A stretch of 64,000 bases of DNA from an uncultured Lachnospiraceae bacterium (GCA_947626795.1 CANQTH010000001.1:37554-101553); one strand, 5' to 3'. Counted from the stretch's first letter, positions 12,038 through 57,934 are shown. Made by a program: numbers and translations. Notes: a model not told the origin generated them from the letters alone.

Positions 12038-13993
12038 ATGAGAGAAAAGCTCAAGTTCTATTTCGGGCGCATCAAAGCCGGACGCCTTGCCGAAATGAAG
12101 CGGCAGACGCTCTGGATCTACCAATACGCCAGGCGCTACTGGCTCATCATGATCTTCTACACCCTTTTGGGCATGGTCGGGACGGCCGTCTCGCTGCTCT
12201 CCAGCCTGGTTTCCAAGGATCTCGTGGACATCATCACCGGACATGAGGCGGGGGAAGTCGTCAAGACGTTCGCCATCATGATCGGCTTAAATGTCGGGAC
12301 GACGTTCTTAAACCAGATCTCCGATTACGCTTCCAGCTACCTGAGCCTGAAAGTGGATTCTGAGATCAAGGCCGACATTTTCTCGAAGATCCTGGTGACG
12401 GACTGGGAATCCCTGACGACTTACCACACGGGCGACCTTCTGACGCGCTGGAGTTCCGACGCCTCCGCCATCTCGAACGGCGTCCTGAACTTCATCCCCA
12501 ACGCCGTCATTTATTTGTTCCGCTTCATCAGCGCGTTTTCCATGGTCATCTATTACGACGCCTCGTTCGCCATATTCGCTTTCCTTGGGATGCCCGTGAG
12601 CCTGCTGCTCTCCAAGACGCTCTTGAACCGCATGGTGAACAACAACCAGCGCAGCGCGGCGATGGGGGCGAAAATGTCCGGCTTTAACCAGGAGACGTTT
12701 TCCAACATCCAGACCATCAAGGCGTTCGACTTGATCCATCTGTACGTCGCGCGGCTCAAGCAGCTCCAGAAGGAATACATCGATATGAAGCTGGATTTCC
12801 AGAAAATGTCGATGGGGACGTCGCTGCTCTTATCGACCGTCGCGCTCCTCGTCTCCTACGCCTCCTACGGCTGGGGCATTTACCGCGTATTCAGCAACGC
12901 CATCAGCTACGGCACGATGACGATGTTCCTAAGCCTCTCCGGGACGCTGACCGGGACGCTGCACAATTTGACGTCCCTCATCCCGACGACGATCTCTCTT
13001 ACGACCTCCGCCGGGCGTCTGATGGACATCATCGAGATGCCGCGCGAGGATTACAGCCAGGATGATGAGGCCGAGCGCTTCTTCCAGGCCAACCGGGCGC
13101 AGGGCATCAGCCTTTCCGTCAAGGGCCTGGATTACTCTTACAGCAACGGGACGGAAGTCTTCCGGGGCGCGTCTTTGGAAGCGCGCCCGCATGAGGTCGT
13201 CGCGCTCGTCGGCCCGTCCGGCGAGGGCAAGACCACAATGATCCGCCTGATCTTATCGCTGATGCGCGCCCAGGGCGGAACCGCCATGCTCTACGGCGGC
13301 GCGGCGGCAGATCCCTCATCCGGAAACGGCGGCGCGGCAGCAGACCCACCATCCGGGGACGGCGGCGCGGCGGCAGATCCCTCATCCGGGGACGACGGCG
13401 CGGCGGCAGACCCGCCATCCGGGGACGGCGGCGCGGCGGCAGACCCGCCATCCGGGAATGGCGGCAGCCCTTCCGCAAGCGGCGGCTCTTCTGCGGATGA
13501 CGGCATCCCCCTGACGCCTTCCACGCGGAAGCTCTTTTCCTATGTGCCGCAGGGCAACACAATGTTCTCCGGCACGATCGCGGAAAATATGCGGAACGTC
13601 AAACCGGACGCCACCGACGAGGAGATCGTGGACGTCTTAAAACTCTCCTGCGCCTGGGATTTCGTGAACAGGCTGCCGGATGGCATCAACAGCGAGATCA
13701 AAGAACGCGGCGGCGGCTTCTCCGAGGGGCAGGCCCAGCGGCTTTCCATCGCGAGGGCCCTGCTGCGACGCTCGCCTATCCTTCTTTTGGATGAGGCGAC
13801 TTCCGCCCTGGACGTCGCGACCGAGCGCAGCGTTCTGCGGAACATCATGTCGGATGAATATCCGAGAACGTGCATCGTGACGACGCACCGCCCGTCCGTG
13901 CTGAATATCTGCAAACGGGTCTATGCCATCCGCGACAAGAAATGCGTCGTCCTCAACGAGGACGAGATCGACGAGATGGTGCGTGGGTTCTGA
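12038..13993 (+). CDS. ABC exporter (TMD+NBD fusion, no C39 peptidase domain)
   Basis: TM helices, Walker A GPSGEGKTT, signature FSEGQAQR, Walker B LLLDEATSALD. Confidence 0.93.
   Translation: MREKLKFYFGRIKAGRLAEMKRQTLWIYQYARRYWLIMIFYTLLGMVGTAVSLLSSLVSKDLVDIITGHEAGEVVKTFAIMIGLNVGTTFLNQISDYASSYLSLKVDSEIKADIFSKILVTDWESLTTYHTGDLLTRWSSDASAISNGVLNFIPNAVIYLFRFISAFSMVIYYDASFAIFAFLGMPVSLLLSKTLLNRMVNNNQRSAAMGAKMSGFNQETFSNIQTIKAFDLIHLYVARLKQLQKEYIDMKLDFQKMSMGTSLLLSTVALLVSYASYGWGIYRVFSNAISYGTMTMFLSLSGTLTGTLHNLTSLIPTTISLTTSAGRLMDIIEMPREDYSQDDEAERFFQANRAQGISLSVKGLDYSYSNGTEVFRGASLEARPHEVVALVGPSGEGKTTMIRLILSLMRAQGGTAMLYGGAAADPSSGNGGAAADPPSGDGGAAADPSSGDDGAAADPPSGDGGAAADPPSGNGGSPSASGGSSADDGIPLTPSTRKLFSYVPQGNTMFSGTIAENMRNVKPDATDEEIVDVLKLSCAWDFVNRLPDGINSEIKERGGGFSEGQAQRLSIARALLRRSPILLLDEATSALDVATERSVLRNIMSDEYPRTCIVTTHRPSVLNICKRVYAIRDKKCVVLNEDEIDEMVRGF
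13295..13462 (+). repeat. Five in-frame 33-bp repeats (GGAAADP[S/P]SG[N/D]) inside the ABC NBD
   Basis: Visible in DNA and protein between Walker A and YVPQ. Confidence 0.9.
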
Positions 13994-14155
13994 TCCCCGC
14001 CATGCATAAAGCAGGCAGGCTGCCGAAGAATTTGGGGGGCGGATAAGATCCTGATCCCCGCGCCGCATCTCCCACGGCAACGCGTCCCACATGACGAGTT
14101 TGGGGCGGATAAGGCCGCGTCCTGATCCCTGCCATGCATAAAGCAGGCAGGCCTC
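13988..14155. repeat. Intergenic direct repeat CTGATCCC(C/T)GCCATGCATAAAGCAGGCAGGC x2, plus a partial middle copy
   Basis: Copies at about 13990 and 14122; the first begins on the ABC stop codon. Confidence 0.7.
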
Positions 14156-14175
14156 CCAATTTCAGGGGCCGCCGA

Positions 14176-15390
14176 TCAGGAAAACAGCTTCATCCTGCCG
14201 ATCAGCCTGCTGCGCTTCCCGGCTTTCTTTAAGATCTCCCGCCCCTTTACCTTGCGGACGGCGCGGTTGTTATGGAGGAAGCGCGCAAGCGTCGCTGCCC
14301 AGAGCGCGGGCCACAGCAGAAACACCTTCCCGGCGGACGGGTAATTCAGGTGCATCTGATGGTGGAACTCCCGCACATAGGCGTTAAGCCCCGTCCCGCG
14401 CATCGCCACCATCCGCTGGCTCTCGTCATGCCCGAACTCCCCCGCCGCAAAGACTTCTTCCATAAAATCCTCCAAAACCTTCGCGGAAACCGATTGCCCG
14501 CCCGACCGGAACACGGCCCGGTCCTCCCGAAGCCCCAGATATCTTACGCACGCGCCGTCCAATATGCGGACGAAGCCTTCCGTCCCGCTCTCTTTCACGA
14601 GACGCAAAAACACTTCTTTTTCTTCCGGCCGCACCTCGCGGTCCCAAAAAACGACCCAGTCGCACAAAAATTTCAGCCCGAATCCCGCGCGCAGGAAATG
14701 CTGCAGCATATGGACGATCAGGTAGAACGCGTGATAAGCGTCCGAGGGTTGGTAAAACGGAACGCCCCACGCCTCGTTCAAGACCATGTGATCTCCATAT
14801 TCCGGGGCCAGTTCTTCCAGATATTGATTCATCTTCCGGCTCTCAAACGGCTCCGCCAGCATACTGTGGATCTCCACGGAAATGCCTTCTTCATTTACCA
14901 TCTCCAAATGGTGCAGCGCCGTCTGGCCCTCCAGCTCCTTGAACCCGTCCTCCTTTAAGATATTCGCGGCGCGCAGGAACTCCCCTCTGTCCGGGATCAG
15001 GATATCCACGTCCCCGGACTTGCGCAGCTCCGGCGTCGGATAATAAGACGCGGTAGCCGCGCCTTTCAGCACGATCGCGCGGATCCCGTTCTTCTCCAAT
15101 TCCCGCGTGACATATTTTGTCAAAAAAAGCAGCCGATAGTTCGAGCGCACGACGACTTTCGCCGGATTTCGGACCGCCGCCTCCCAGCTTTCCGGATCCT
15201 CTTGCCCGCCCAGGGCGGCGAGCAGCGGCAAGACCGCGTGCCGCCTGGCAATCTCCGCCATCTTAAAAAAAAGAGGCCCATCCTTTTCTATGTCAGCTTT
15301 TCGCCCTTCCCGGCGCAGCGCAGCCGCCAGCCCTTCCAGCAGCATCTTTTCCGCCCCGCCCATTTTTGCCGTCTGTTTTTTCTCCTGCAT
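14176..15390 (-). CDS. Nucleotidyltransferase family protein (NTP_transf_5-like)
   Basis: VLKGAATASYYPTPELRKSGDVDILI, VEIH, HMLQHF..GFGLKFLCDW. Confidence 0.85.
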   Translation of the reverse strand: MQEKKQTAKMGGAEKMLLEGLAAALRREGRKADIEKDGPLFFKMAEIARRHAVLPLLAALGGQEDPESWEAAVRNPAKVVVRSNYRLLFLTKYVTRELEKNGIRAIVLKGAATASYYPTPELRKSGDVDILIPDRGEFLRAANILKEDGFKELEGQTALHHLEMVNEEGISVEIHSMLAEPFESRKMNQYLEELAPEYGDHMVLNEAWGVPFYQPSDAYHAFYLIVHMLQHFLRAGFGLKFLCDWVVFWDREVRPEEKEVFLRLVKESGTEGFVRILDGACVRYLGLREDRAVFRSGGQSVSAKVLEDFMEEVFAAGEFGHDESQRMVAMRGTGLNAYVREFHHQMHLNYPSAGKVFLLWPALWAATLARFLHNNRAVRKVKGREILKKAGKRSRLIGRMKLFS

Positions 15391-17137: not shown

Positions 17138-17349
17138 CTCATTTCTCAAACGAGGATTTTTCCGGCAGCGCGCTTGCTGCCCGCCTCCCCCATTTCCCGA
17201 ACAGGGATTTCCCGGCGGCGCACCCTCTCTCATTTCTCAAACGAGGATTTCCCGGCAGCGCGCCTTACGCCTCTCTCCCCTTCCCGAACAGGGATTTCCC
17301 GGCGGCGCACCCTCTCTCATTTCTCAAACGAGGATTTTTCCGGCAGCGC
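17138..17349. repeat. Three copies (period about 87-91 bp) of the Stealth gene 3' end
   Basis: CTCATTTCTCAAACGAGGATTT..CCGGCAGCGC at 17138, 17229 and 17316; the last contains the real stop. Confidence 0.85.
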
Positions 17350-18363
17350 CTGTTCCAGCGCCTCCATGACCTGCCGCTTCGCGCGCGCAAAATCGATCGG
17401 CTCGTTGGCGTCGTTGACGCAGACGATCTTCGCCTTGCGCCTCGCGATCGTTTTCATCAGCGCGGGGTTGTCGCTCTTCACGTCAAAATAACGGAATCCC
17501 CGCAGGACATTTTTTGCACGGAAATTCCCGGATAATTTCTGCCACTCCCGCGCGAGGTACTGGCTCACATCCCCTTTATCCCGGAAACGGTGGCGGCACG
17601 TACTATCCAAAAGCTCCGCCTCCTTCTCCCAAAGCTCCCGGTACGTCCCCTTCAAGAACGGGGCCGCCCCGTGCGCCGTGAAAAACCCGGTATAACGCGG
17701 GAACACCATCTCCAGCAGATTATAAAAAAAGTAGAGTGGGGGATAGCCGACCTTAAAATAATTGCCCGGCTGGCGTTTCACGTTCTCCCGCTTGGAAAAA
17801 TGCTTCGACAGCGCAAGCGCGTTGTTCATATAGATGTAGGTCATGACCGGGTTCTCCGGGTTCGCGACGACGGGCTGGAACGCCAGCATATCGCAGGGCT
17901 TCCCGCCGATGAAAAAATCTTCTTTTTTCAGCTCATCGATCAGGAGCATATCGTCGTTAAAGTAGACGAACTGCTCTGAAAGGCCCTCGATCCGGTGCAT
18001 ATTCCACTCGATCGTATGGGAATTGAACGTGGGCAGGTATTCCGGCGGGATGTAGTCCTCGTGGCGCACGATATGCAGCTTCGGATGGGAAACGTCCAGC
18101 CAATCCGGCAGATGCCCCCAGGTGATGAAATGGATCTTCCGCACCCAGGGCGCGTATTTTTCCACGCCCCGAAACCAATACTGCAGGATGCCCCAGTCGC
18201 GGTAACGCTCGTCGGCGTCGTCGGTCCCGTCCCAGCCGCCTCCCGCTTCTTTGCCTCCTTCGCGTCCGAACTCCCGCTCGCGGCACGCCCTCTTTTCCCG
18301 CCGCCAGTTCTCGTCGCCGCCATCCACCCAGGTAATGACGAAATCAATTTCCTCTTCCCGCAT
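17317..18363 (-). CDS. Stealth-family phosphoglycosyl transferase
   Basis: IDFVITWVDG (CR1), LPTFNSHTIE..GLSEQFVYFNDD (CR2), CRHRFR, CVND. Confidence 0.93.
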   Translation of the reverse strand: MREEEIDFVITWVDGGDENWRREKRACREREFGREGGKEAGGGWDGTDDADERYRDWGILQYWFRGVEKYAPWVRKIHFITWGHLPDWLDVSHPKLHIVRHEDYIPPEYLPTFNSHTIEWNMHRIEGLSEQFVYFNDDMLLIDELKKEDFFIGGKPCDMLAFQPVVANPENPVMTYIYMNNALALSKHFSKRENVKRQPGNYFKVGYPPLYFFYNLLEMVFPRYTGFFTAHGAAPFLKGTYRELWEKEAELLDSTCRHRFRDKGDVSQYLAREWQKLSGNFRAKNVLRGFRYFDVKSDNPALMKTIARRKAKIVCVNDANEPIDFARAKRQVMEALEQALPEKSSFEK

Positions 18364-18496: not shown

Positions 18497-19933
18497 ATGA
18501 AAAAGAAACGTCTCCTTATCATCCCATGCGCCCTGCTCCTGGCGGCCTTAGCCGCCGCGGGGATCGCCGCGCGCCAATTTTACTTAGAACGATATTATGT
18601 CGTCTCCTGCCAGAGCGCGCCGTATGAAGACACGGCCAGGCTTCTGTCCAACCCGTACTGCGGCTGGTACCGCATTTACGGCTACGCGCTCTCGGACTCC
18701 GCACCGCCGGACATGGAGGCCATGCAAAAAAATATCGCCTCGGACGACAACGAGCTGGTTCTTTTGGAACTCAACCTGCGGAATTACGCTGCTTCCGACA
18801 TCAGCCCGACAGGGCTTGCCCAATTGGAATCCATCCTGTCCGCCTGGGAGGCGTCCGGCAAGCAGCTCATCCTGCGCTTCCTGTATGACTGGGACGGCAA
18901 GGCCAGGGAAACCGAACCGGACGACATCTCCGTCATCAAGCGCCACATGGAACAGGCCGCAAAGGCCGTCAACCGCCATAAAAGCTGCGTCTACCTGCTG
19001 CAGGGCATCTTTGTGGGCAATTGCGGGGAAATGAACAATTCCAATTATATGGCCGCAGAGCAGATGCGCGAGCTTGCCGCATATCTGGACTCCGTTATCG
19101 ACAAGTCGATCTTCCTGTCCGTGCGCACCCCGGCGCATTACCGCGCCATCAGCCAGTCCTTCGACCCTTTGCCCGCCGAGAAAGCATTTTCCGGCGCGAT
19201 CGAGGCAAGAACCGGGCTGTTCAACGACGGGATGCTCGGCTCCGCCAGCGACCTGGGCACCTACGGGGAGACGCCCCTCGCCGAAGCGGCGGACTTTAAC
19301 GGAAAAGGTACGCGCGCGGAAGAGATCGCGTTCCAAAACGCCCTCTGCCAGTATGTGCCGAACGGCGGCGAGGCCGTCCTGGACAACGAATACAACGATT
19401 TCCCCAACGCCGTCGCCGACCTGCGCGAAATGCACGTCTCCTACTTAGACTGCGGCTACGACCTCGCCGTGCTGGAAAAATGGCGCGGCAGCTCTTACGG
19501 GGGGGACGGCTGCTTCCACGGCGGGGACGGCTGCTCCTACATCGGCGCGCACCTTGGCTACCGCTATGCCTTCCGCTCCTCTGACTGCAGCTTCGACCCG
19601 TTCCGCGACGGGACCGCCGCCTTTTCTCTCACCATCGAAAACAGCGGCTTCGCGAACAGCTACCGCCCCTTCTCCTCCGTCGTGACCGTGCTGCGCGAAG
19701 ACGGGAGCGTCTGCGACGCCATCCCCGTCCGCTCCGACGCGCGCCTTTGGAAGAGCGGGGAATCCGTCACGCTCCAAGTCCCGCTCGACGTCTGCGCCTA
19801 TAAGGAAGGGACTTACCGCATTTACTATCGGCTGTCCGACCCGGCCTTGGACGGCCGCACCATCCTGTTCGCCAACACGCTGTCCTTATCCGAATACGGC
19901 TATCCAATCGCCACGCTGACCGTCGAGAAGTAA
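18497..19933 (+). CDS. DUF4874/DUF4832-type putative glycoside hydrolase with N-terminal signal/anchor
   Basis: NPYCGWY, LRFLYDWDG, GIFVGNCGEMN, GLFNDG, PNGGE, HLGYR; hydrophobic N-terminus. Confidence 0.7.
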   Translation: MKKKRLLIIPCALLLAALAAAGIAARQFYLERYYVVSCQSAPYEDTARLLSNPYCGWYRIYGYALSDSAPPDMEAMQKNIASDDNELVLLELNLRNYAASDISPTGLAQLESILSAWEASGKQLILRFLYDWDGKARETEPDDISVIKRHMEQAAKAVNRHKSCVYLLQGIFVGNCGEMNNSNYMAAEQMRELAAYLDSVIDKSIFLSVRTPAHYRAISQSFDPLPAEKAFSGAIEARTGLFNDGMLGSASDLGTYGETPLAEAADFNGKGTRAEEIAFQNALCQYVPNGGEAVLDNEYNDFPNAVADLREMHVSYLDCGYDLAVLEKWRGSSYGGDGCFHGGDGCSYIGAHLGYRYAFRSSDCSFDPFRDGTAAFSLTIENSGFANSYRPFSSVVTVLREDGSVCDAIPVRSDARLWKSGESVTLQVPLDVCAYKEGTYRIYYRLSDPALDGRTILFANTLSLSEYGYPIATLTVEK

Positions 19934-20005
19934 AACGGACGATCCTGGAACTTTCCGGCGGCGTGACACGGATATCCAATCGCCACACTGACTGTCGAGA
20001 AGTAA
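19901..20005. repeat. 33-bp 3' end of the DUF4832 gene duplicated 72 bp downstream
   Basis: TATCCAATCGCCAC(G/A)CTGAC(C/T)GTCGAGAAGTAA at 19901 and 19973. Confidence 0.85.
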
Positions 20006-20021
20006 TGCGGCGTTCCTTCCC

Positions 20022-22077: not shown

Positions 22078-22133
22078 AGCCAATCTCCTTCCCCTCTCGC
22101 TTCCTTCGTATGCCCCGGCCGCCTTGCGCCTTT

Positions 22134-22260
22134 CCTTATCGCGGCAGGCCTGGCAGCTCCTGCTTTCCCCCTGCGGTCCCTGCCCCGCCCTTATCGCGGC
22201 AGGCCTGGCGGCTCCTGCTTTCCCCCTGTGATCCCTGCCCCGTCCTTATTGCAACAGGCT
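22134..22260. repeat. 55-bp tandem repeat anchored on the GT4 stop codon
   Basis: CCTTAT(C/T)GC(GG/AA)CAGG at 22134, 22189 and 22244. Confidence 0.75.
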
Positions 22261-23451
22261 CAGCAGCATCTGCATTTCCTCTGTGTTCCCGAGCGGCCTC
22301 TTCCCGGCGGCTTCCCCCAGCCGCTCCCGCTTTTCCTTATCGTCGATCAAAGACGCCACGCACCGGAAAATGCCGTCCTCGGACAGCTCGCAGAGCAGCC
22401 CGTCCACGCCGTCCTCCACCTGCTCGCGGTTCCCGTTGCAGTCGGACGCGATGATGGCGCAGCCAAGCGCCTGCGCTTCCTGGATGGCGATGCTCTTTCC
22501 CTCGAACCGGGTCGCATGGACATAGATGTCGCATTGCCGATAGTACGGATACGGGTTCTCCACCGCCCCCAGCAGCTTGAAATCCCGTTCCAGCCCCAGG
22601 CTCTTTTGCTGCCGCTCCAGGCTCTCCCGCTGGTCGCCTTCCCCAAGGACATACCAGCGCGCCCGGTATCCGGCGTCTTTCAGCTTCTTCATGGCGCCAA
22701 GCGCGACGTCGTACGCCTTCTGGTGCGTGAGCCGCCCGACCGTGAGCAACCGTATCCCTGCAAATCGGTCGGAAAACCCGCCCGGCCGGTCCGCCATTTC
22801 CAAGATCCGGTCCCGGTTAATGATATTGTGGAAGACCTGCGTCTTCCCCGCCCATTCCGGATAGACTTGCAAAAACGCCGTGCGGACTTCTTCTGAGACC
22901 CCGAAGATCCGATCGAACTTCGCATAGCAGTCCCGGTCCATCTTCCGCGTGTATCCGGCGCTCCCGTAGTCAATATGCACAAACGCCGCTTTTTTCCCTG
23001 CCTTCACATGATCCGCCGTAAAATACGTCGCGCCGCCTTCCAGATACGCGACCGCTAAGTCGTATTCCTCCTCCGGGTACTCGCCGCCGTCCGAAAGCAG
23101 CCGCCAGAACAGCTTATCCGCCCGGAACGCCTTCTGCCTGCGCATCTCGTTGGCGGCGACCGCCATGCCCCACAGCTTCCTTCCCCATTTCCCATTGCGG
23201 AAAAAGCTCCGAACTACAGCCTTCTTTATGTGGCGGCGGCCGTTTTCCGAAAGCACGGACGTGTCCCTGTATTCGCGGTTCAGCAGCCTCACATGGCCCG
23301 GCAGCTCGCGCACAAGCTCTCCCTGCCCCAGGACCACGTACACGGAAATCTCATATTCTTCCTCGGGAAGGAGGCGCATCAGCTCTAACATCGCCATTTC
23401 CGCCCCGGCGCGCCCCAACGTATTGATGACAAACAAAATCTTTTTCTTCAT
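22246..23451 (-). CDS. GT4 glycosyltransferase
   Basis: LGRAGAEMAM, VGRLTHQKAYD, RFEGKSIAIQEA. Confidence 0.9.
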   Translation of the reverse strand: MKKKILFVINTLGRAGAEMAMLELMRLLPEEEYEISVYVVLGQGELVRELPGHVRLLNREYRDTSVLSENGRRHIKKAVVRSFFRNGKWGRKLWGMAVAANEMRRQKAFRADKLFWRLLSDGGEYPEEEYDLAVAYLEGGATYFTADHVKAGKKAAFVHIDYGSAGYTRKMDRDCYAKFDRIFGVSEEVRTAFLQVYPEWAGKTQVFHNIINRDRILEMADRPGGFSDRFAGIRLLTVGRLTHQKAYDVALGAMKKLKDAGYRARWYVLGEGDQRESLERQQKSLGLERDFKLLGAVENPYPYYRQCDIYVHATRFEGKSIAIQEAQALGCAIIASDCNGNREQVEDGVDGLLCELSEDGIFRCVASLIDDKEKRERLGEAAGKRPLGNTEEMQMLLSLLQ

Positions 23452-36509: not shown

Positions 36510-36560
36510 AAAAAAGGCTGCCGCGATCGATCTGTCCATCGGTTGCGGCGGCCCTTTTCC
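36510..36560 (-). terminator. Intrinsic terminator after the GRE operon
   Basis: GGCTGCCGCGATCG...CGGTTGCGGCGGCC stem flanked by A/T runs. Confidence 0.6.
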
Positions 36561-44901: not shown

Positions 44902-45188
44902 TGAATGCGGATTTTTTATTTTTTAAAACACCAAATGAAATACAAAAGATGATAGCTTCCAATGAAAGAAAATGCAGAAAGGCGGCAAAGCTAACACAGG
45001 AACAATTGAGCGAGAAATCGGGTGTTAGTCTTGGGTCTTTAAAACGCTTTGAAACAACAGGTGAGATTTCCTTACATTCTTTGTTGAAACTTGCAGTGGT
45101 ATTGGAGCAAGAAAGAGAATTTATGGAATTGTTTGAAAAAAAGCAGTACAACTCAATACAGGAGGTTATTGATGAACAGAATTCATAA
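44901..45188 (+). CDS. XRE HTH antitoxin (HipB-like)
   Basis: RKAAKLTQEQLSEKSGVSLGSLKRFETTG; overlaps the hipA start. Confidence 0.85.
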   Translation: MNADFLFFKTPNEIQKMIASNERKCRKAAKLTQEQLSEKSGVSLGSLKRFETTGEISLHSLLKLAVVLEQEREFMELFEKKQYNSIQEVIDEQNS

Positions 45189-46314
45189 ATTGGATGTATT
45201 CTATCATAATCGCAAGGTGGGAACCCTTGCAACGACAAAGGACAAGAGAATAGCTTTTTCCTATGATGCAGAGTGGCTAGCGCAAGGCTTTATAATAAGT
45301 CCTTTTAGTTTGCCTTTAAAGAGAGAAGTTTTTATTCCTAGAATGGAACCCTTTGAGGGAGTATACGGAGTATTTGCAGATAGTCTGCCGGATGGCTGGG
45401 GACGCTTGCTATTAGACCGTTTTTTGGTGCAGCAGGGAGAAAATCCTGCTAGTGTAGATAACTTGACCAGACTTGCAATTGTGGGGAGTGTAGGCTTAGG
45501 CGCCTTAGAATATCGTCCGTCCATGGAGATGGAACAGCAGCGGCAGGAAGAAGACTGGGATACTCTTTCAGAAAAATGTCATAAGGTATTGCAGTCGGAA
45601 TATGTGGAGAACTTGGATGAACTGGTGGCGCTAGGGGGGTCTTCTGGAGGTGCCAGACCTAAGGTTATGACAAAATATAAGGGAGAAGAGTGGATTATCA
45701 AGTTTCCGGCTACTATGGATAGAGAGGATATTGGAGAACTGGAATATCGGTATAACTGTTGTGCAAAGAAGTGTGGAATAGAGGTTGCGGAAACACGGTT
45801 ATTTGAATCAAAGAAGTGTAGCGGTTACTTTGGAACAAAGCGTTTTGACCGGATATATGATGAACAGGGGAAAGAACAAAAGATTCATATGATTTCTGTA
45901 AGTGCAGTGTTGGAAACATCACATAGGATTCCAAATCTTGATTATCATATATTGATGAAATTAACATTGGAGCTGACAAAGGACTATCAAGAAGTAGAGA
46001 AGATGTTTCGATGGATGTGCTTTAATGTGTTTGCTCATAATCGTGATGATCATTCTAAAAATTTTTCCTATTTATACGATGAAAAGAAGGGGCAGTATGT
46101 GCTGTCTCCGGCATATGACTTAACGTACAGCAATTCAATTGGAGGAGAACACGCAACATGTGTCAATGGAAATGGTGTAAATCCTGGAATAAGTGACATT
46201 CTTGCGGTTGCAAAGGGGATTGGTATTGCGGGTGAAAAAGCAAGGAACATTGCAAGAGAAATACAAGAAATTGTACAAAATGAATTAGGGGATGTGCAAA
46301 GACTTGGTAGTTAG
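45172..46314 (+). CDS. hipA: HipA-family kinase toxin
   Basis: DSLPDGWG, SSGGARPK, NRDDHSKNFS, LSPAYD. Confidence 0.9.
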   Translation: MNRIHKLDVFYHNRKVGTLATTKDKRIAFSYDAEWLAQGFIISPFSLPLKREVFIPRMEPFEGVYGVFADSLPDGWGRLLLDRFLVQQGENPASVDNLTRLAIVGSVGLGALEYRPSMEMEQQRQEEDWDTLSEKCHKVLQSEYVENLDELVALGGSSGGARPKVMTKYKGEEWIIKFPATMDREDIGELEYRYNCCAKKCGIEVAETRLFESKKCSGYFGTKRFDRIYDEQGKEQKIHMISVSAVLETSHRIPNLDYHILMKLTLELTKDYQEVEKMFRWMCFNVFAHNRDDHSKNFSYLYDEKKGQYVLSPAYDLTYSNSIGGEHATCVNGNGVNPGISDILAVAKGIGIAGEKARNIAREIQEIVQNELGDVQRLGS

Positions 46315-46456: not shown

Positions 46457-46783
46457 ATGTACAAACCAATTGACAAGTCACAACATTCATTTCTTGACTT
46501 CAATCAGCCAATGGGGCTGCATATGAATCCGGACAATCGCTGGATTAAAATGGCAGGCCGTATCCCTTGGGATGAGTTTGAGATAAAATATGCGGAACTC
46601 TTTCCCAGTGATACCGGCAACGCTGCCAAACCGCTTCGCATGGCGCTGGGGGCATTGATCATCCAGACCAAGTTTCAGTTTTCCGATCGCGAACTTGTGG
46701 AGCAGCTTACAGAGAACCCATATCTGCAGCGCTTTATCGGACTTCCCGGCTATCAGGAAGAGGCTCCGTATCAGCAGACACTA
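46457..46783 (+). pseudogene. IS5-family transposase, N-terminal third only
   Basis: NRWIKMA..IPWDEFE..AKPLRMALGALII..SDRELVEQLTENPYLQRFIG; no DDE domain before the right IR. Confidence 0.8.
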
Positions 46784-46950
46784 ATTATATTTTAAAGTGT
46801 TTTGTATTGATTGATTTAAAAATTGAGAAAATCACTCATCAGGATGTAGGGCAGATGGATATGTATATTCGTATGTATGATGAATTAAAACGTAGCGAGG
46901 GTGACAATCCCACTATTGGTATTGTTCTTTGTGCTGATACAGATGAAGAA
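46784..46950 (+). pseudogene. DUF1016/YhcG C-terminal fragment
   Basis: NYILKCFVLIDLKIEKITHQDVGQMDMYIRMYDELKRSEGDNPTIGIVLC. Confidence 0.75.
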
Positions 46951-47727: not shown

Positions 47728-47738
47728 AAGCGCATCCT

Positions 47739-48383
47739 CTATTGGTGCGCTTTTTTGCGGATTTCTTCTACCAGCTTATGTACCGTTGTGCATGGACACA
47801 TTTCAGACGGCTTGTCCATCCCATTTTTCAAATATTGCGCAAGGCGGGATTCCGCGATCCGAATGGCTTCTTCTTCATCGCCATAGCGGTTCAGCATGGC
47901 ATAAATCTGCCTGTTGGATTTTTTATATTCCTGGCCGCTTTTCTTCAGAAAGACATTCGCAAATTCCCGACAGCAATGAACCGAATCCTGGCTATTGCGC
48001 ATTTTTCCAAAGTAGGCGTCAAACCAAATCTCTATGCACGGATTCGACCAGCCAACACGGATGCCCTCTCGCTCGGCATTCTCTATGATCTGATCGAAGC
48101 CCGTCACCCGGTCTCTGTCAAATACGATCCAAGGTTCCCCATATTGAGGCTCCATAGCCGCCTGCTCCCTGCACGCCGAGACAAGCGACTCCGTTTTTGC
48201 CTTGGAAACCTTAATCACGATCCGGCCCCGTAAATTCTCTGGAAGGGAATCCCTAAGCCCATACAGATAATTTTCTTCCGTTTCCTTTGTATCTGTCACG
48301 ATAAAATAATATCCAAGATCCGGAACCCTTTTACGAAAATTATCCCTTCTTGCGCGTTTTCCTCTCCTGTCTTCTTTCGCCAT
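47739..48383 (-). CDS. RloB-family protein (AbiLii-like)
   Basis: IVTDTKETEENY, WIVFDRD, WSNPCIEIWF, PCTTVHKLV. Confidence 0.85.
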   Translation of the reverse strand: MAKEDRRGKRARRDNFRKRVPDLGYYFIVTDTKETEENYLYGLRDSLPENLRGRIVIKVSKAKTESLVSACREQAAMEPQYGEPWIVFDRDRVTGFDQIIENAEREGIRVGWSNPCIEIWFDAYFGKMRNSQDSVHCCREFANVFLKKSGQEYKKSNRQIYAMLNRYGDEEEAIRIAESRLAQYLKNGMDKPSEMCPCTTVHKLVEEIRKKAHQ

Positions 48384-48419
48384 GCATTTTCTCCTTCCGA
48401 AACATATCAAAATGAACTT

Positions 48420-49664
48420 TTACAAAGATTTCAATGCAGGGATCGCGCCATATTTTCCCAGCATATAATTCTTCTCATAACTTTCATCTTTTCGGATCTT
48501 CGCGCCATCTTCATCCACAAAATCTGCCAGGGAATAGAGCGAAGAAACGCCGTCTTTATCCTTTTCTGTAAACCATATCTCATCCCGGCGGAGCAGGCCG
48601 TTAGAAAGCTGCCAAGAATCATGAGCCGTGAATGCCAACTGGGCGTGATTCGGATTGCTCGTAGGATCTAAAAAAACGATCAGGAAATTTCTGACCAGCA
48701 AAGGATGCAGTCTGGCATTTAATTCATCAACGAACAGTATCCCGCCATTTTCCAACGTGTCCTGCAAGGCAGGATACAATGCGAACATCTTTAAAGTCCC
48801 ATCCGACTCTTCTTCTAATGGAATTGACGCGCTTCCCCCGTGAACCATGCGGTGGATCGCGTCAATCTTAACGCGTTCCCGTTCCTCGTCCTCCCCCTTC
48901 ATGACCTCGGCATGAAATCCTATAATAGAAGGGTCAAAGGACGAAAAATACGCCACCACCTTATCCTGAACGGCTTTATCCGCCGCAAATCCCTCCGGCA
49001 TGAGAGAAGAAAGGAACATATTTTCATACGGATCTCCAAAATTAGCAAAATTCGCATGATAGAACCAATCCCGGACAAACTTCAATTTCTCAATTTTCAG
49101 CTTTGCCCCCAAAGAAACAATGAGAACTTCCTTATTCAAGGAGATCCGGATCAGTTCCTGGCTCTTGGCCGGAAGGCCGGACAGATCCAATTCATCCCTG
49201 CTGCGATAGAAAACCTGCTTATACTCACGGGCGGTCTTGGATTTTGAATTTAGCCATTCCTCGATGACCCCATCGCGATCCAGCGTAAATCCATAATTGT
49301 ACGACTTAAACCCATTCTCTTCGGTATCCATAAAATAAACTTCAAAAGAAGACGCCGCGTCCCTGCTGTCAGCATCAAATAAAAAAGGGGAATATTTCCA
49401 TTTCCTTCCCTTCCCCTTTTTCCCATCGGAATCTCCCCCATAGGAAAACGATTCCATCACATAAGTTACCATATAGCGAAAAGCCTCTATCACATTTGAC
49501 TTTCCGCTTGCATTCGCGCCAAAAATAGCCGCTGCAGGCAATAATCTCTCATGTCCGGCAGAAATGACACGATCCGAATGCTCAGTGATCTTCGTTGCGG
49601 AGAAATCTAAGATCGTATCGTCCCGGAAGGACTTAAAATTTTTAAAACGAAATTGTATCAGCAT
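48420..49664 (-). CDS. AAA_21/RloA-like ATPase (AbiLi-like)
   Basis: FKNFKSF, FGANASGKSN, EESDGT, VDELNARLHP, RRDEIWFTEK, YMLGKYGAIP. Confidence 0.87.
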   Translation of the reverse strand: MLIQFRFKNFKSFRDDTILDFSATKITEHSDRVISAGHERLLPAAAIFGANASGKSNVIEAFRYMVTYVMESFSYGGDSDGKKGKGRKWKYSPFLFDADSRDAASSFEVYFMDTEENGFKSYNYGFTLDRDGVIEEWLNSKSKTAREYKQVFYRSRDELDLSGLPAKSQELIRISLNKEVLIVSLGAKLKIEKLKFVRDWFYHANFANFGDPYENMFLSSLMPEGFAADKAVQDKVVAYFSSFDPSIIGFHAEVMKGEDEERERVKIDAIHRMVHGGSASIPLEEESDGTLKMFALYPALQDTLENGGILFVDELNARLHPLLVRNFLIVFLDPTSNPNHAQLAFTAHDSWQLSNGLLRRDEIWFTEKDKDGVSSLYSLADFVDEDGAKIRKDESYEKNYMLGKYGAIPALKSL

Positions 49665-49777
49665 GACGCATTCCCTCCCTTCTTCTATTATACGCAAAAA
49701 TCCTCAAAAAAACAACATTTATATGAGAATAATTCTCAAATAAATGTTGTTTTTTCTTGAAATTTCTAATTTTCCTG

Positions 49778-50341: not shown

Positions 50342-50962
50342 ATGCTCAATTACTTATGGGGTTTCATGATCTTGATCGGCGTCGTCTACGCCGCTTTCAC
50401 CGGAAACCTCCCGGCTGTCACGAACGCGGCTCTGGATTCCTCAAAGGAAGCCGTCGCCCTCTGCATCACCATGCTCGGGGTCATGTCCTTATGGGTGGGC
50501 GTCATGCGGATTGCTGAAAACTGCGGGATCATAAAAGGCGCGGCGCGTATGCTGGATCCCCTGCTGCGCTTCATGTTCCCGGACATCCCGAAAGGCCATA
50601 AGGCGAACGAATATATCTCCACCAACATCATCGCCAATATGTTCGGCTTAGGATGGGCGGCGACCCCGGCCGGATTGAAGGCCATGGAAGAAATGGGTGC
50701 CTTGAACCGCCACAGCAAACGGGCGAGCAAGGATATGTGTACCTTTCTGATCCTCAACGTCTCGGCGCTGCAGCTCATCCCGGTCAACATGATCGCATAC
50801 CGCAGCCAATACGGCTCGGCAAACCCGGCGGGCATCTTAGGGCCTTCCATGATCGCCAATCTCGTCTCCGCACTGTCCGGCGTCGTCTTCGCAAAGGCCA
50901 TGCGCGCCCTCCCGGAGAAAAACAAGCCCCGTACATATGAAAAAAGGAGGTTTCCGCAATGA
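50342..50962 (+). CDS. spmA: Spore maturation protein A
   Basis: ANMFGLGWAATPAGLKAM; overlaps spmB. Confidence 0.88.
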   Translation: MLNYLWGFMILIGVVYAAFTGNLPAVTNAALDSSKEAVALCITMLGVMSLWVGVMRIAENCGIIKGAARMLDPLLRFMFPDIPKGHKANEYISTNIIANMFGLGWAATPAGLKAMEEMGALNRHSKRASKDMCTFLILNVSALQLIPVNMIAYRSQYGSANPAGILGPSMIANLVSALSGVVFAKAMRALPEKNKPRTYEKRRFPQ

Positions 50963-51486
50963 AAGCCCTCCTTTTCTTATCTGACGCCATGATACCGATC
51001 TTTCTATTTTCCATCGTAGGATATGGGCTTTTGAGCCGCCGCCCCGTCTACGACGACTTCATCAAAGGGGCGAAAGACGGCTTCCAGACCGTCATAGGGA
51101 TCATGCCAACCCTGATCGGCCTTATGGTCGGCGTGGGCGTGCTGCGCGCTTCCGGCTTCCTGGACTTTGTCTCCTCGTTCCTCAGCGTCTTTGCGGAGCC
51201 GCTCCGCTTCCCAGCGGAACTCATCCCGGCAGCCATCGTGAAAATGTTCTCTTCCTCCGCGGCGACCGGGCTTGTGCTGGATATTTTTAAGGAGCATGGG
51301 CCGGATTCCTACTGCGGGACGATGATCTCCATCATCATGAGCTGCACGGAAACGATCTTTTACACGATGAGCGTCTATTTTATGGCCGCAAAAGTGCAGA
51401 AAACGCGCTACACGCTGGCGGGCGCCCTCGTCACGACGCTGGCCGGGACAGCCGCGAGCGTGATTTTAACGCAGCTCCTCTTCTAA
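50959..51486 (+). CDS. spmB: Spore maturation protein B
   Basis: FIKGAKDG, SCTETIFYTMSVYF, KTRY. Confidence 0.88.
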   Translation: MKALLFLSDAMIPIFLFSIVGYGLLSRRPVYDDFIKGAKDGFQTVIGIMPTLIGLMVGVGVLRASGFLDFVSSFLSVFAEPLRFPAELIPAAIVKMFSSSAATGLVLDIFKEHGPDSYCGTMISIIMSCTETIFYTMSVYFMAAKVQKTRYTLAGALVTTLAGTAASVILTQLLF

Positions 51487-51558
51487 GAGAACAAACCCTT
51501 GCTTAGGAAACGCGATTGGGCATCGCGAGCGCAATCCTGACGCAGCTCCTCTTCTAAG
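51453..51558. repeat. spmB 3' end duplicated 71 bp downstream
   Basis: CGCGAGCG..ACGCAGCTCCTCTTCTAAG at 51453 and 51524. Confidence 0.8.
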
Positions 51559-51590
51559 GACGAACCGTGCTTAGAAAACGCCGCTCTTCT

Positions 51591-53027
51591 CTAAGGACGC
51601 CGCGCGCCGCCCATCTTTTTCAAATACCGATCCGTTTCCGCCGCGACCACGCCGCTTAGGGAAAGAAGCGCGATCAGGTTCGGGATCGCCATCAGGCCGT
51701 TAAAGATATCCGCGATCGTCCACACGGCGGAAACCGTCATAAACGGCCCGATGAACACACAGAGGATATATATCCAGCGGTACGCTTTCACGACCTTCTG
51801 CTTCCCGCCCGTCAGATATTCCAGGCATTTCTCGCTGTAATAATCCCATCCGAGGATCGTCGTGAACGCGAAGAACACCAGGCACATCATCAGGATGAAG
51901 GACGAGACGGCGGGCGCGAAGGGAAGCCCTTCCTGGAACGCCCTTGTCGTCACCTCCACGCCTTCAAGGCCGACGTCCCACGACCCCGTGATCACGATGG
52001 TAAGCCCCGTCATCGTACAGATGATGATCGTGTCGATCACCGTTCCCAGCATGGATACCAGCCCCTGCGCCGCAGGCTCGTCTGTCTGCACGGCGGCAGC
52101 GGCGATCGGCGCGCTCCCTAAGCCCGCCTCATTCGAGAAGATTCCTCTCGCGATTCCGTTTTGCACAGCGGCCATCATAGCCCCAAGCGCCCCGCCCGCG
52201 GCTGCCCTAAGCCCAAACGCGCTTTTTACGATCGTCGCGAAGGCTGCCGGGATCTCGGAAATATGTAAGAATAATACCAAAGCGGCGGACAGGACATAAG
52301 CCGCGGCCATGAACGGCACGACCACCTGGGCCACGCCGGAAATCCTCTGGATGCCGCCGATGACCACAAGCGCGACGCAGGCCGTCAGGATCACGCCCGC
52401 GATTATGACCGTCCAGGAATATTCCCTGCCAAGCAGGCGGACGGACCATTGGCTGTCCGGGTCAAAGAAGTTGTTCACCGCGCCTGTGATGCCGTTGATC
52501 TGGGTAAACGTCCCGATCCCCAAAAGCCCTGCCAGAACTCCGAACAGCGCGAAAAGCTTTCCCAACCATTTCCAATTCTTTCCCATTCCCCGCTCAATAT
52601 AGCAGAATGGCCCGCCCACGATATGCCCGTCGTCCGCGACCACACGGTACTTGATCGCCAGCAGGCATTCCGCGTATTTCGTGGCTGTGCCAAAAACGGC
52701 GGCCGCCACCATCCAGAACAGCGCGCCCGGCCCCCCGGCGACGATCGCCGTCGCGACGCCCACGATATTGCCCGTCCCGATCGTCGCGGATAACGCCGTG
52801 CAAAGCGCGCCAAAGCTGGAAACCTCCCCGCTCTCCCCGGATTTCTCATTCGCGAGAAGATTGCGGATCGCTAACGGGAGCCTCCTCACCTGCAGCCCTT
52901 TTAAGCGGATCGTCAAAAATATCCCGACGGAAAGGATCAGCACGATCAGAGGAATCCCCCAGACATATCCGTCGATCTTCGTTAAAATCTCATCGCTTTT
53001 CTCAAAAAAAACATCCATCTTCACCAT
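51591..53027 (-). CDS. Alanine/glycine:cation symporter (AlsT/AGCS)
   Basis: TIGTGNIVGVA, GGPGALFWM, RGIFSNEAGLGSAP, DTIIICTMTG. Confidence 0.93.
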   Translation of the reverse strand: MVKMDVFFEKSDEILTKIDGYVWGIPLIVLILSVGIFLTIRLKGLQVRRLPLAIRNLLANEKSGESGEVSSFGALCTALSATIGTGNIVGVATAIVAGGPGALFWMVAAAVFGTATKYAECLLAIKYRVVADDGHIVGGPFCYIERGMGKNWKWLGKLFALFGVLAGLLGIGTFTQINGITGAVNNFFDPDSQWSVRLLGREYSWTVIIAGVILTACVALVVIGGIQRISGVAQVVVPFMAAAYVLSAALVLFLHISEIPAAFATIVKSAFGLRAAAGGALGAMMAAVQNGIARGIFSNEAGLGSAPIAAAAVQTDEPAAQGLVSMLGTVIDTIIICTMTGLTIVITGSWDVGLEGVEVTTRAFQEGLPFAPAVSSFILMMCLVFFAFTTILGWDYYSEKCLEYLTGGKQKVVKAYRWIYILCVFIGPFMTVSAVWTIADIFNGLMAIPNLIALLSLSGVVAAETDRYLKKMGGARRP

Positions 53028-53098: not shown

Positions 53099-53941
53099 TC
53101 AGTCCAGATACCGCCCGATCTGCGGCATCCAATCCCCCAAAAACAATTCGTCCCGCATCACCCCTTCAAAGATCGGCGTGAAAAAATCCGCCGCAAGCCG
53201 CACGACCTCCCCCCATGGCGGATACTTCTCCCCCTCGCGCCTCCCCTGGCTTTTCCATCTTTTTTCCATGTATCTGTAATTCTCATAGCTTTTGATCGTG
53301 TCAAGCCGCCTTTCCACGGACGGGATCGGGTTTTCCGACAAGATATAGGAAAATCTTTCCCACACCTTCCTCCCGTTCATCGGCTCTTCCACCAGGATAT
53401 CGTAAATTTCCTTATACCAGGACAAATCTTTTATTAGCTCCAGGCCAACCAGGATCTCATAAAAACACCGCGACACATATTCCTCCGGCGGGAACGTGCT
53501 GTATGAGATCTTCCCTTCCCCCCAATAATTTTCCTCCAATTCCTTTTCCTGCAGGCTGACCGGGCTTCCTCGGTACGGGATCAGGAAGATCTGGAACGGG
53601 ACGCGGTAGCAGCCTTCCGAAATTTCCAAAAAAACAGGCGGCCCTGCATTCGCGCCTTCCCTTTTTTCCTGCAAAACAACCCTCAAAGAGCCTTCCGCTC
53701 CGTTTTCCGGCAAAAAGATCCGCTCCAATCCCTGCACAGCCTCCCGCATCTCCTCTTCCAGGACGAAAAATCCCAAAGAGCTTATGATATGCCTGCGGAA
53801 ACGATCCGGAGCAAGCAGACGGCTGTTTCTCAGCAAAAGTTTCTGGTTGAGCGGGGACTGCGAAATCTCCCATAAGATCTTTTCCGCGCCGCGCCGCGCT
53901 GTCAGATAGACGGACAAGGCTTCCCCCTTCCCCGCCCCCAT
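53099..53941 (-). CDS. Degenerate AbiEii-like partner protein
   Basis: TAATG-coupled to AbiEi; AbiEii-like length and C-terminus, but no recognisable KGG or DxD motif. Confidence 0.45.
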   Translation of the reverse strand: MGAGKGEALSVYLTARRGAEKILWEISQSPLNQKLLLRNSRLLAPDRFRRHIISSLGFFVLEEEMREAVQGLERIFLPENGAEGSLRVVLQEKREGANAGPPVFLEISEGCYRVPFQIFLIPYRGSPVSLQEKELEENYWGEGKISYSTFPPEEYVSRCFYEILVGLELIKDLSWYKEIYDILVEEPMNGRKVWERFSYILSENPIPSVERRLDTIKSYENYRYMEKRWKSQGRREGEKYPPWGEVVRLAADFFTPIFEGVMRDELFLGDWMPQIGRYLD

Positions 53942-54561
53942 TACAGCCACACCCCGATCCGGTCCTGGACTTTTTTCGTCACTTTCCGTATCTTCGCATA
54001 TTCCATCAATCTCTGAATGTCCTTCTTAGGTTCGGCAATGTAACTGCGGAGCGACTGCTGCATCACTTCCCTGCTCAGCTTCTCCTCGAACTTCAGGCAA
54101 TCGCAGATCAAACGTTCCTTATTATAGATAGAAATCTTTCCTTCTCCCAATTCCATTTCTTCCACGCCCAGTCTTAAGACGTCCTGTTCCACATAATAAG
54201 GCTGAACCGGAGGGAACGCGATCTTGAACCTGGACTTTGAGGTGTCCTTGTCAAAAGCTATATGCCAGCACGCCGGGCGGATATCCAGATAGCCCTGGTA
54301 AAACAAAGCGCTTTCCATGCAAAGCACGCCGTCTGGGAACAATTCGCAGACCATCGTCTCCTCCGGCTTGCCGGAAAATCCCATGCTGTAATACCCATTC
54401 TTCACCCGCTCCAACACGCCTTTTTTCACAAGCCCCTGGATCTTGCGGTAGCTGACCGACAAGTCATATAGTTCGGAAGTCTTCATCAATCCTCCGCGGC
54501 GTTCCATTTCCTGACTGATCTTTTCCACTAAATCTTCCATTTTTCCGCTCAATTTTCCCAT
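53941..54561 (-). CDS. Type IV TA antitoxin, AbiEi family
   Basis: N-terminal wHTH (LERVKNGYY), GVLCMESALFY, YNKERLICD. Confidence 0.8.
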   Translation of the reverse strand: MGKLSGKMEDLVEKISQEMERRGGLMKTSELYDLSVSYRKIQGLVKKGVLERVKNGYYSMGFSGKPEETMVCELFPDGVLCMESALFYQGYLDIRPACWHIAFDKDTSKSRFKIAFPPVQPYYVEQDVLRLGVEEMELGEGKISIYNKERLICDCLKFEEKLSREVMQQSLRSYIAEPKKDIQRLMEYAKIRKVTKKVQDRIGVWL

Positions 54562-56902: not shown

Positions 56903-57135
56903 CAATCTTCTCCTTACCGCGTCTTTCGTACTGTTCCGATAGTTGAGCTATTACTATTTTTTACAAATATATTACGTTTAGTATATCATAATTTTTCTTC
57001 CTTTTCTACGTATTTTATTATATAATTACCATAATGGTAATCATATTCTTACGCATCCAGACAGTAAAGTGTCTGAATACTGTGTGAACAACAACGTAAT
57101 AGTCCAGCCTTTCGGCTTAACATATGGAGGCGTTT

Positions 57136-57777
57136 ATGAGATTACGGAACATTCCAGGCTCACGGGAAGCGATCGCGTCCAGCCAGTGGTGCGTCCAGGA
57201 ACCGGAGCTGCAAAAAGGCCGTTGGCGCTCATTTTTCGGAAATGACAATCCCATCCAGATTGAAATCGGCATGGGGAAAGGCAAGTTTCTTTTGGAACTC
57301 GCAAAAAGAAATCCGGATGTCAATTATCTTGGGATTGAGAAATATTCCAGCGTGCTTCTGCGCGCGCTTCAGAAAATAGAGGAAGAACCTCTGCCGAACG
57401 TCCGCTTCATCCGCATGGAGGCGGAATCTCTCTGCGACGTCTTTGGGGAAGGGGAGATTGCAAAGATTTATCTCAACTTTTCCGATCCCTGGCCAAAAGA
57501 CCGCCACGCCAAACGCCGCCTGACTTCGCGCCAGTTTTTTTTGCGCTATGACATCATCCTGGCGGAAAACGGGACGGTGGAATTTAAGACGGACAACAAA
57601 GATCTGTTCGCCTTCTCTTTAGAAGAGATAAAAGAAGCGGGATGGGACTTGGACGACTTCACCTGGGACCTGCACCATGACGACGCGAGGAACGCCAAAA
57701 ATATCACGACAGAATATGAGGAACGTTTTTCCTCCATGGGCAACCCAATCTGCAAGCTGACTGCTTCCCGGTCATGA
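57136..57777 (+). CDS. trmB: tRNA (guanine-N7)-methyltransferase
   Basis: EIGMGKG, FSDPWPKDRHAKRRL, FKTDN, TEYE. Confidence 0.95.
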   Translation: MRLRNIPGSREAIASSQWCVQEPELQKGRWRSFFGNDNPIQIEIGMGKGKFLLELAKRNPDVNYLGIEKYSSVLLRALQKIEEEPLPNVRFIRMEAESLCDVFGEGEIAKIYLNFSDPWPKDRHAKRRLTSRQFFLRYDIILAENGTVEFKTDNKDLFAFSLEEIKEAGWDLDDFTWDLHHDDARNAKNITTEYEERFSSMGNPICKLTASRS

Positions 57778-57934
57778 AAATTATCACAGAATATGAGGAA
57801 CGTTTTTCCTCCATGGGCAACACGATCTGCAAGCTGACTGCTTCCCGGTCATGAAAACCATGATAGAATATGAGGAACGTTTTTCCTCCATGGGCAATCT
57901 GATCTGCAAGCTGTCCGCTTCCCGGTCATGAAAA
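57711..57934. repeat. Three 70-bp copies (period 77) of the trmB 3' end
   Basis: AGAATATGAGGAACG...CCCGGTCATGAAAA at 57711, 57788 and 57865. Confidence 0.92.

Follow-up and report, generated by a model that had tools for sequence, protein, structure and literature searches.

Tandem duplication of gene 3′ ends across stop codons in a GC-rich Lachnospiraceae lineage, a pattern best read as survivorship

A 64,000-nucleotide stretch of DNA from an uncultured Lachnospiraceae bacterium of the rabbit gut (GCA_947626795.1, CANQTH010000001.1:37554-101553; hereafter the window, with positions counted from its first letter) contains unusually many head-to-tail repeats with periods of 24-141 nt. Eight genes on both strands had been described in a first-pass annotation as having their 3′ ends, stop codon included, re-copied into the downstream intergenic space. 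All eight are present in the sequence, and each gene is directly followed by one to four additional, diverged copies of its own stop-containing 3′ end. These arrays are genuine, derived and specific to the lineage. They probably reflect (at a probability of about 0.68) a lineage-wide high rate of tandem duplication by slippage or microhomology that is filtered by selection and calls for no new mechanism, and the apparent anchoring on stop codons is best read as a survivorship pattern. The finding is an unusually dense, lineage-specific case of a known kind of sequence evolution.

Tandem repeats in the window were detected with Tandem Repeats Finder (TRF) and self-BLAST, and genes were mapped by Pfam scans, which reveal a Gram-positive-type Pel exopolysaccharide (EPS) cluster together with housekeeping genes. 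Head-to-tail copies of a locus-specific unit are seen in the TRF output, in self-BLAST and in alignments (Table 1). The copies exhibit 77-94% identity and diverge freely, and neighbouring copies in the stop-spanning arrays are spaced 35-132 nt apart. Each ~77-80-nt copy of the trmB array terminates in ...GGTCATGA, and a long terminator-like hairpin rich in guanine and cytosine (GC) lies downstream (~57940-57995). In the trmB array, AAAA(C) microhomology occurs where the unit begins and again in the right flank; among the other arrays, divergence or a copy-spacer-copy (X-Y-X) layout keeps such arms from being recovered. The Stealth array lies between the Stealth stop (17317-17319) and the ATG of the next gene (17142), and its copies alternate with two older, diverged A′ subunits, the first and last copies being identical at 34 of 34 positions. 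The two DUF4874/DUF4832 copies (19896-19946 and 19968-20017; 51 nt each, 86% identity) fill the spacer ahead of a convergent DUF4832 paralogue (stop 20022-20024). The array of the GT1/GT4 glycosyltransferase (GT) is placed between the stop of that gene (22246-22248) and the start of a GT2 gene (22083), and its coding anchor of ~38-42 nt is longer than the short anchor originally ascribed to it. The array of the open reading frame (ORF) labelled 'pelE' spans the region from the stop (31867-31869) to the ribosome-binding site (RBS) and ATG of the next gene (31695), with a unit that includes 25 nt of non-ancestral sequence. The 'pelE' ORF has no Pfam hit and encodes 468 residues in the window versus 273-385 in relatives.

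The peptidase 34-mer consists of 22 coding nt, TAA and 9 further nt, and its two copies are located 62 nt apart with a unique 28 nt in between. It can form a small hairpin (CCTCT/AGAGG) that holds the TAA stop codon within the loop. This gene-end duplication stands as first described, and only the family label S26 is approximate, since the Pfam match is a weak one to S24. The partial third copy of the spmB array extends into the stop of a convergent alsT-like gene (51591-51593). The ABC exporter had been singled out as the weakest case; the array includes only ~5 nt of coding sequence and is really the entire spacer between two convergent stops (exporter TGA, 13991-13993; NTP_transf_5 stop, 14176-14178). 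Each of its units begins with TGATCC; the units display a mean column identity of 72%, and copies 1 and 3 are 94% identical across 34 nt. A ninth array, in the 3′ untranslated region (UTR) of a pyruvate-formate-lyase-like (PFL-like) gene, excludes the stop, begins ~19 nt beyond it and stops at a terminator (36516-36553). A strong terminator adjoins only the trmB and PFL arrays. The description of the arrays as anchored on the stop codon is therefore correct in that eight of them include it and overstated in that the position of the stop along the unit varies, the coding share ranging from ~8% (ABC exporter) to 86% (trmB), as expected from random breakpoints. Breakpoints upstream of the stop are scattered over 5 to 78 nt.

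Table 1. Repeat arrays of the window, with the length of the adjoining junction in five relatives and in the window (nt). Empty cells, no value given.
Feature	Gene or ORF	Array	Strand	Unit and copies	Junction: relatives / window
ABC exporter to NTP_transf_5 spacer	12038..13993	13986..14183	+	3 diverged ~66-nt units	NTP_transf_5/ABC exporter: 2-23 / 182
Stealth 3′ end (last 30 nt + TGA)	17317..18363	17138..17349	-	3 copies, superunit 87-91 nt	Stealth to next gene: 9-12 / 174
DUF4874/DUF4832 3′ end (35 nt + TAA + 12 nt)	end 19933	19896..20017	+	2 copies, period 72	convergent DUF4832 pair: -4 to 20 / 88
GT1/GT4 glycosyltransferase 3′ end + TAA	22246..23451	22133..22290	-	3 copies, period 55	
'pelE' ORF 3′ end (~10-16 nt + TAA)	31867..33273	31719..31883	-	~5 copies, 35-nt unit, 71-nt superunit	'pelE' to next gene: 12-44, stop abutting RBS / 171
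S24/S26-like peptidase 3′ end	35901..36347	35830..35925	-	34-mer x2, 100% identical	peptidase to PqqD-like gene: 4-41 / 110
spmB 3′ end (31 nt + TAA + 27 nt)	50959..51486	51453..51599	+	2 copies + partial third, period 71	
trmB 3′ end (~66-78 nt + TGA)	57124..57777	57697..57935	+	3 copies, period 77-80	
PFL-like gene 3′ UTR array		36556..36711	-	29-nt unit, 58-nt superunit, 5.4 copies	
ABC exporter ORF, in-frame array		13293..13465	+	period 33/66	
PelF-like GT C-terminus, in-frame array		25350..25534	-	period 57, 3 copies	
912-aa ORF, in-frame arrays		30003..30738	-	periods 24 and 105	
'pelE' ORF, in-frame arrays		32813..33108	-	periods 81 and 51	
650-aa ORF, in-frame arrays		60360..61482	-	periods 33/99, 126, 141	
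Divergent promoter region upstream of ABC transporter operon	40522..	40362-40463		3 motif copies with palindrome AATTCCGTAnCAGAATT	

The arrays were compared with independent Logan contigs and unitigs from four rabbit-gut metagenome runs (coverage ~3x). Repeats are a classic site of assembly errors, and assembly artefact had been named as an outcome that would undo the finding. The independent sequences instead match three arrays fully and the trmB array in part. One contig covers the DUF4832 array (19269-20097) and two cover the GT1/GT4 array (22054-22413 and 22183-22528), all with 0 differences, and the Stealth array is tiled by unitigs with 0 mismatches. Moreover, the copies differ from one another by substitutions and hence are not assembler stutter. 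An assembly artefact is refuted by these unitigs. Contigs of other studies, from strains 93-98% identical to the window, run from trmB copy 1 into copy 2 (93%) and from copy 3 into the flank (98%); the trmB array is thus common to these strains. As a separate observation, contigs of two runs (X3 and X4) match the ABC exporter as far as 13981 and then diverge (TCTGACAGCCGAAAGGCTG...), and those samples appear to include a related gene or strain that differs in its 3′ end and in the region beyond it.

The best TrmB match is 73% identical among GTDB species representatives and 70% identical in metagenome scans, and an exact-protein look-up for TrmB gave no match. Syntenic Pel loci were found through a PelG search, so that the comparison with close relatives covers the Pel half of the window. 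In five relatives (L083, L084, L086, L087 and L090; PelG 77-79% identical, 44-50% GC), the junctions that bear arrays in the window are compact, at -4 to 44 nt compared with 88-182 nt; the gap at the GT1/GT4 junction is 25-107 nt in relatives. The C-termini encoded by the copied gene ends are kept in relatives (Stealth ...PEKSEFEK and 'pelE' ...IRTF(S/G)), and the TrmB C-terminus is conserved in homologues as far as residue 216-217. The compact junctions and conserved C-termini indicate that the genic copy is ancestral and that the downstream copies are insertions. The junctions of relatives lack much of the 'pelE' and Stealth units, which points to histories of more than one step.

The closest relative (L081, GCA_964580595.1; PelG 85% identical, 58.5% GC in the Pel cluster) has an array density of 14.5 per 64 kb, at sites other than those of the window. 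Four in-frame 117-nt repeats (L081 7083-7516) extend the C-terminus of its PelG, which contains 686 residues versus ~491-495 elsewhere, and a 38-nt array of its own lies across the PelF stop (L081 5451-5523). At its Stealth and DUF4832 junctions, the scaffold is interrupted by N gaps. Because L081 is equally array-rich at different sites, the tendency is a trait of the GC-rich clade and the arrays arise independently. The Pel cluster of the window (13900-36400) has 57.8% GC, compared with 41.5-49.7% in relatives with 77-81% PelG identity (L081-L091 comparison), and differences between genic and downstream copies comprise 21 from AT to GC and 11 from GC to AT. Both observations fit an ongoing drive to higher GC in the clade. 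Outside it, an unrelated metagenomic Lachnospiraceae contig (L155, 11960-12260) contains a gene end with its stop three times at a period of 80, indicating that the phenomenon is general but rare elsewhere.

Array density was compared with a background of 1.43 Mb of other Lachnospiraceae loci. The window contains 16 arrays of period at least 20 per 64 kb versus 4.3 in the background (Poisson P ~1e-5), and, at equal TRF threshold, four stop-spanning arrays versus 0.4 expected (P ~8e-4). Enrichment over background is ~10x for stop-spanning, ~3.5x for in-frame and ~2x for purely intergenic arrays. By junction type, arrays occur at 4/8 convergent, 5/37 co-directional and 1/7 divergent junctions, the divergent one being operator-like.

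The periods of the arrays differ between the interior and the ends of genes. All nine well-internal ORF arrays of period at least 20 have periods divisible by 3 (24, 27, 27, 33, 33/99, 57, 81/51, 105 and 141; chance ~5e-5), as do 61 of 64 internal arrays in the background loci. Stop-including arrays have periods of 35, 55, 62, 71, 72 and 77, with no bias to multiples of 3. A period-19 row (55721-55765) is readable as period 9 and leaves the in-frame rule unaffected. None of the window arrays of period at least 29 copies an RBS or start codon, and the sole candidate for such copying, a 20/21-nt repeat at the start of the gene at 53941..54561, is weak and likewise leaves the in-frame rule unaffected. 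Periods divisible by 3 inside genes, and no such rule at stops, argue for a general duplication process under selection. This favours the second of the two explanations raised at the outset, that duplications survive only where they leave the ORF and RBS intact. Among the in-frame arrays, that of the PelF-like GT encodes an acidic WPDEEPEDKPDKGSE tail and ends 9 nt short of the stop. Within the in-frame array of period 81 in the 'pelE' ORF (32835-32960), one Logan contig of run X4 "goes back 126" with six inserted letters; the population may contain a variant in copy number or arrangement here, or the path of the unitig may be an artefact.

In the reading that we favour, the GC-rich lineage of the window and L081 (~58% GC) would make or keep minisatellite-type duplications of 25-140 bp several-fold more often than its relatives. 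The initial step is likely to be replication slippage or microhomology-mediated tandem duplication, and unequal recombination between copies already present may follow as a second step. Such recombination would explain why periods are nested (35/71, 40/87, 29/58 and 33/99). A tandem duplication should damage a gene only if both of its breakpoints fall inside that gene. Purifying selection would accordingly spare in-frame arrays in tolerant protein segments, arrays with the left end in the 3′ end of a gene and the right end past the stop, and a small number in 3′ UTRs. At ~0-45 nt, the ancestral junctions would have been shorter than one unit, so that a surviving non-coding duplication had to begin in the upstream ORF and carry the stop along. 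Duplications that copied an RBS or start were presumably purged, as they would create decoy initiation sites or displace promoters. The molecular mechanism of duplication, the selection against start-spanning events and the cause of the raised rate are inferences.

Null models place this reading in context. Under a uniform null, duplications of the observed sizes were placed on the array-collapsed window, and the non-internal events were stop-only in 18%, start-only in 27%, stop plus start in 8% and purely intergenic in 47%; the stop-only share is 28% once the start-containing classes are removed. A second null used direct microhomology pairs that had GC-rich arms and a spacing of 25-140 nt. 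Microhomology-mediated tandem duplication is reported to be the main source of bacterial tandem repeats, with long GC-rich arms far likelier to duplicate (bioRxiv 10.64898/2026.02.28.708716), for which reason this null was weighted by GC. Under it, stop-only events account for 51-70% of the stop-only and intergenic events, given that the large spacers are AT-rich, and the 8/10 observed is unremarkable (P 0.06-0.33). The enrichment at stops anticipated by the first-pass annotation thus holds in the window against uniform placement (P 4e-5 to 1e-3) and is gone under the GC-weighted microhomology null.

Several observations weigh against the survivorship reading. With eight stop-only versus two intergenic arrays, the uniform null is rejected at P = 4e-5, and it is still rejected at P = 1e-3 when all start-containing events are assumed lethal; the enrichment vanishes only under the GC-weighted microhomology null, which was built on few pairs. 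The same null predicts about twice as many start-containing as stop-only events, and 0 are seen beside the eight stop-only arrays (P ~1.5e-4). Survivorship must therefore assume strong selection against duplicated RBS and start regions, which is a plausible assumption and also the chief point at which a mechanistic rival could enter. High GC is not a sufficient cause either: it does not by itself predict array density in the background, where loci of 50-55% GC contain 1.25 arrays per 64 kb. Several arrays are of the X-Y-X type and not clean XYXY (X/Y lengths 34/28, 51/21 and 61/10), most sharply at the peptidase, where identical 34-mers enclose the unique 28-nt spacer, and at DUF4832 (51 + 21 nt). 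One simple tandem duplication does not predict this layout. A templated origin of the filler is rejected, as neither strand of the window contains a second occurrence from which the non-repeated spacers of these two arrays could have been copied. No copy-number variation of the stop-spanning arrays was seen at ~3x contig depth, and the data from this genome come from a single 64-kb window. Finally, the asymmetry between 3′ and 5′ gene ends is explained only by the assumed selection, which leaves a mechanism linked to termination with a low probability.

Such a mechanism, the first of the two original explanations, would start from ribosome release at the stop. RNA polymerase would become uncoupled, backtracked, R-looped or terminating, the replisome would stall, and template switching would produce duplications around stops. 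The stronger enrichment of stop-spanning arrays relative to the in-frame and intergenic classes, the rejection of the uniform-placement nulls and the lack of start-spanning arrays are in its favour, as is the finding that the copied end at convergent junctions belongs to the head-on (+) gene in 4/4 cases. The orientation follows from GC skew, which marks the + strand as the lagging strand, so that + genes are head-on to replication. The difference between head-on and co-directional genes is, however, not significant (arrays at 4/17 and 4/36 genes, respectively). Ten units were folded as DNA and scored against shuffles. The eight stop-spanning units have z-scores between -1.6 and +1.6 and the PFL 3′-UTR unit one of +0.2, indicating no structure beyond that of shuffles; the lowest of the ten (-2.0) belongs to the operator-like unit at 40362. 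These values reject a hairpin or terminator as the general cause. Pattern-based terminator scans were uninformative except for three or four obvious terminators. Four arrays are located at operon-internal junctions that measure 9-44 nt in most relatives and contain no terminator in any relative. The dispersal of the upstream breakpoints, the many equally young in-frame arrays deep within ORFs and the removal of the stop enrichment by the GC-weighted null also argue against a termination-linked origin, which is unlikely and finds no support as the explanation first proposed. In its broader form, duplications in the GC-rich lineage would start preferentially where translation ends, stops would be true hot spots that lengthen 3′ UTRs and spacers, and the lack of start arrays and the ~10-fold stop excess would reflect mutational bias and not selection. 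This form is rather improbable.

Alternatively, the arrays could be kept because they are useful, as translation-uncoupling spacers, 3′-UTR stability or processing elements, or binding sites, with gene-end copying as the only harmless route to them. Junctions that are tightly coupled in relatives, with the stop abutting the RBS, have reached 110-174 nt in the window within one EPS operon; the peptidase 34-mer shows 100% conservation, unlike its spacer; and the trmB array is common to strains 93-98% identical. However, different arrays have no sequence or structure in common, their copies diverge freely, and some arrays lie at convergent junctions, where coupling plays no part. The relatives do without arrays, and no array matches an Rfam family, the Rfam matches in the window being three tRNAs only. 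Retention for function is accordingly a poor candidate.

Very little speaks for a dispersed mobile repeat family of the MIRU, REP/BIME or MITE type that inserts beside stops. The intercistronic or 3′ extragenic position, the tandem copies and the 35-90-nt units are what such a family would show. Yet 36 pairwise unit comparisons across loci were no better than shuffled controls, which contradicts it; each unit copies the end of its own gene, and the ORFs scanned yielded neither a transposase nor a RAYT-like gene. MIRUs are one dispersed family of common sequence, and REPs form a palindromic family that is spread across the genome and moved by RAYT transposases. The window arrays resemble REP/BIME elements of enterobacteria in forming clusters of ~35-nt GC-rich units just past stops, often between convergent genes, but their units are not palindromic beyond chance and not common to different loci. 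They resemble MIRUs (PMC12548453) as tandem units of 40-100 bp in operon intercistronic spaces that touch ORF boundaries with little harm to the flanking genes. MIRUs, however, are short, apparently mobile repeats that insert at start codons and include an ORF of their own that is coupled to the gene downstream (PMC12548453), whereas the window arrays stem from the 3′ end of their own gene, have units unrelated between loci and avoid starts. In the Stealth array, the only one traced by eye in all frames, no consistent MIRU-type bridging small ORF was found.

One of the closest known counterparts is the microhomology-mediated tandem duplication that expands into minisatellite or variable-number tandem repeat (VNTR) arrays, as described in S. 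pombe and E. coli (PMC8639346) and in a cross-domain survey (bioRxiv 10.64898/2026.02.28.708716). Shared features are the locus-specific head-to-tail copies, the nested re-duplication, the border microhomology at trmB, the in-frame bias within genes and the GC-rich context. The window departs from such VNTRs in that most arms are unrecoverable, several arrays are X-Y-X with filler and the density is lineage-specific. In addition, its non-coding survivors lie nearly all at gene 3′ ends, a distribution that is not described in PMC8639346 or bioRxiv 10.64898/2026.02.28.708716. The attL/attR sites of genomic islands and prophages likewise place a copy of a gene 3′ end with its stop downstream of an intact gene. 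Those copies flank a kilobase-scale element and arise by site-specific recombination, whereas the window copies are adjacent (35-132 nt) with nothing between them.

A diversity-generating retroelement (DGR), in which a template repeat lies downstream of a variable repeat at a gene 3′ end, would likewise pair a gene end with a nearby copy; it is, together with the assembly artefact dismissed above, scarcely credible. A single DGR does not account for eight targets whose units are unrelated. Of the mismatches that separate genic from downstream copies, 13/36 fall at A; they are mostly transitions at all four bases and are not adenine-specific, and no reverse transcriptase domain was found among ~50 distinct window ORFs scanned against Pfam, small ORFs having been scanned in part. 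CRISPR-like ectopic spacer integration, considered for the X-Y-X arrays, is rejected because the X/Y lengths given above are inconsistent and the other arrays have no variable spacer; Pfam scans of window ORFs detected no cas domains.

If the survivorship reading is true, the window illustrates how selection decides where tandem duplications persist in a gene-dense genome, namely in tolerant segments when in frame, or across stops. Gene-end duplication has expanded the intercistronic spacers of the Pel operon from ~10 nt to ~170 nt, which probably broke translational coupling. For annotation, the arrays create pseudo-3′-ends, and they will break short-read assemblies. The clade combines a GC jump (~45% to 58%) with a 3- to 10-fold rise in minisatellites, which points to a change in replication or repair. 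The cross-domain survey implicates Rad27 in such duplication, and its counterpart in bacteria is the Pol I 5′-nuclease/FEN-type flap endonuclease.

The window also contains repeats and gene groups of other kinds. The triple motif at 40362-40463 probably represents operator sites and not a neutral array. A tandem duplication of ~1.2 kb (3605-4646 and 4805-5843, 99.4% identical) contains two copies of a 289-aa ORF (3702..4571 and 4899..5768) that has no Pfam hit and low GC at third codon positions (0.41), just downstream of a tRNA gene (2986-3059). Direct repeats of 42 nt (62479-62520 and 63299-63340, 98% identical), each a palindromic terminator-like hairpin, flank an AT-rich 165-aa ORF (62738..63235) beside another tRNA gene (63348-63421, - strand). 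This arrangement looks like a small insertion that duplicated a terminator, and the two repeats may be of the attL/attR kind, separate from the gene-end arrays. An AT-rich island (44500-49700) encodes a HipA-like kinase (45091..46314), a DUF772 transposase fragment (46457..46795) and a pair formed by an AAA_21 ATPase (48420..49697) and RloB (47739..48410), which resembles a module for defence or abortive infection.

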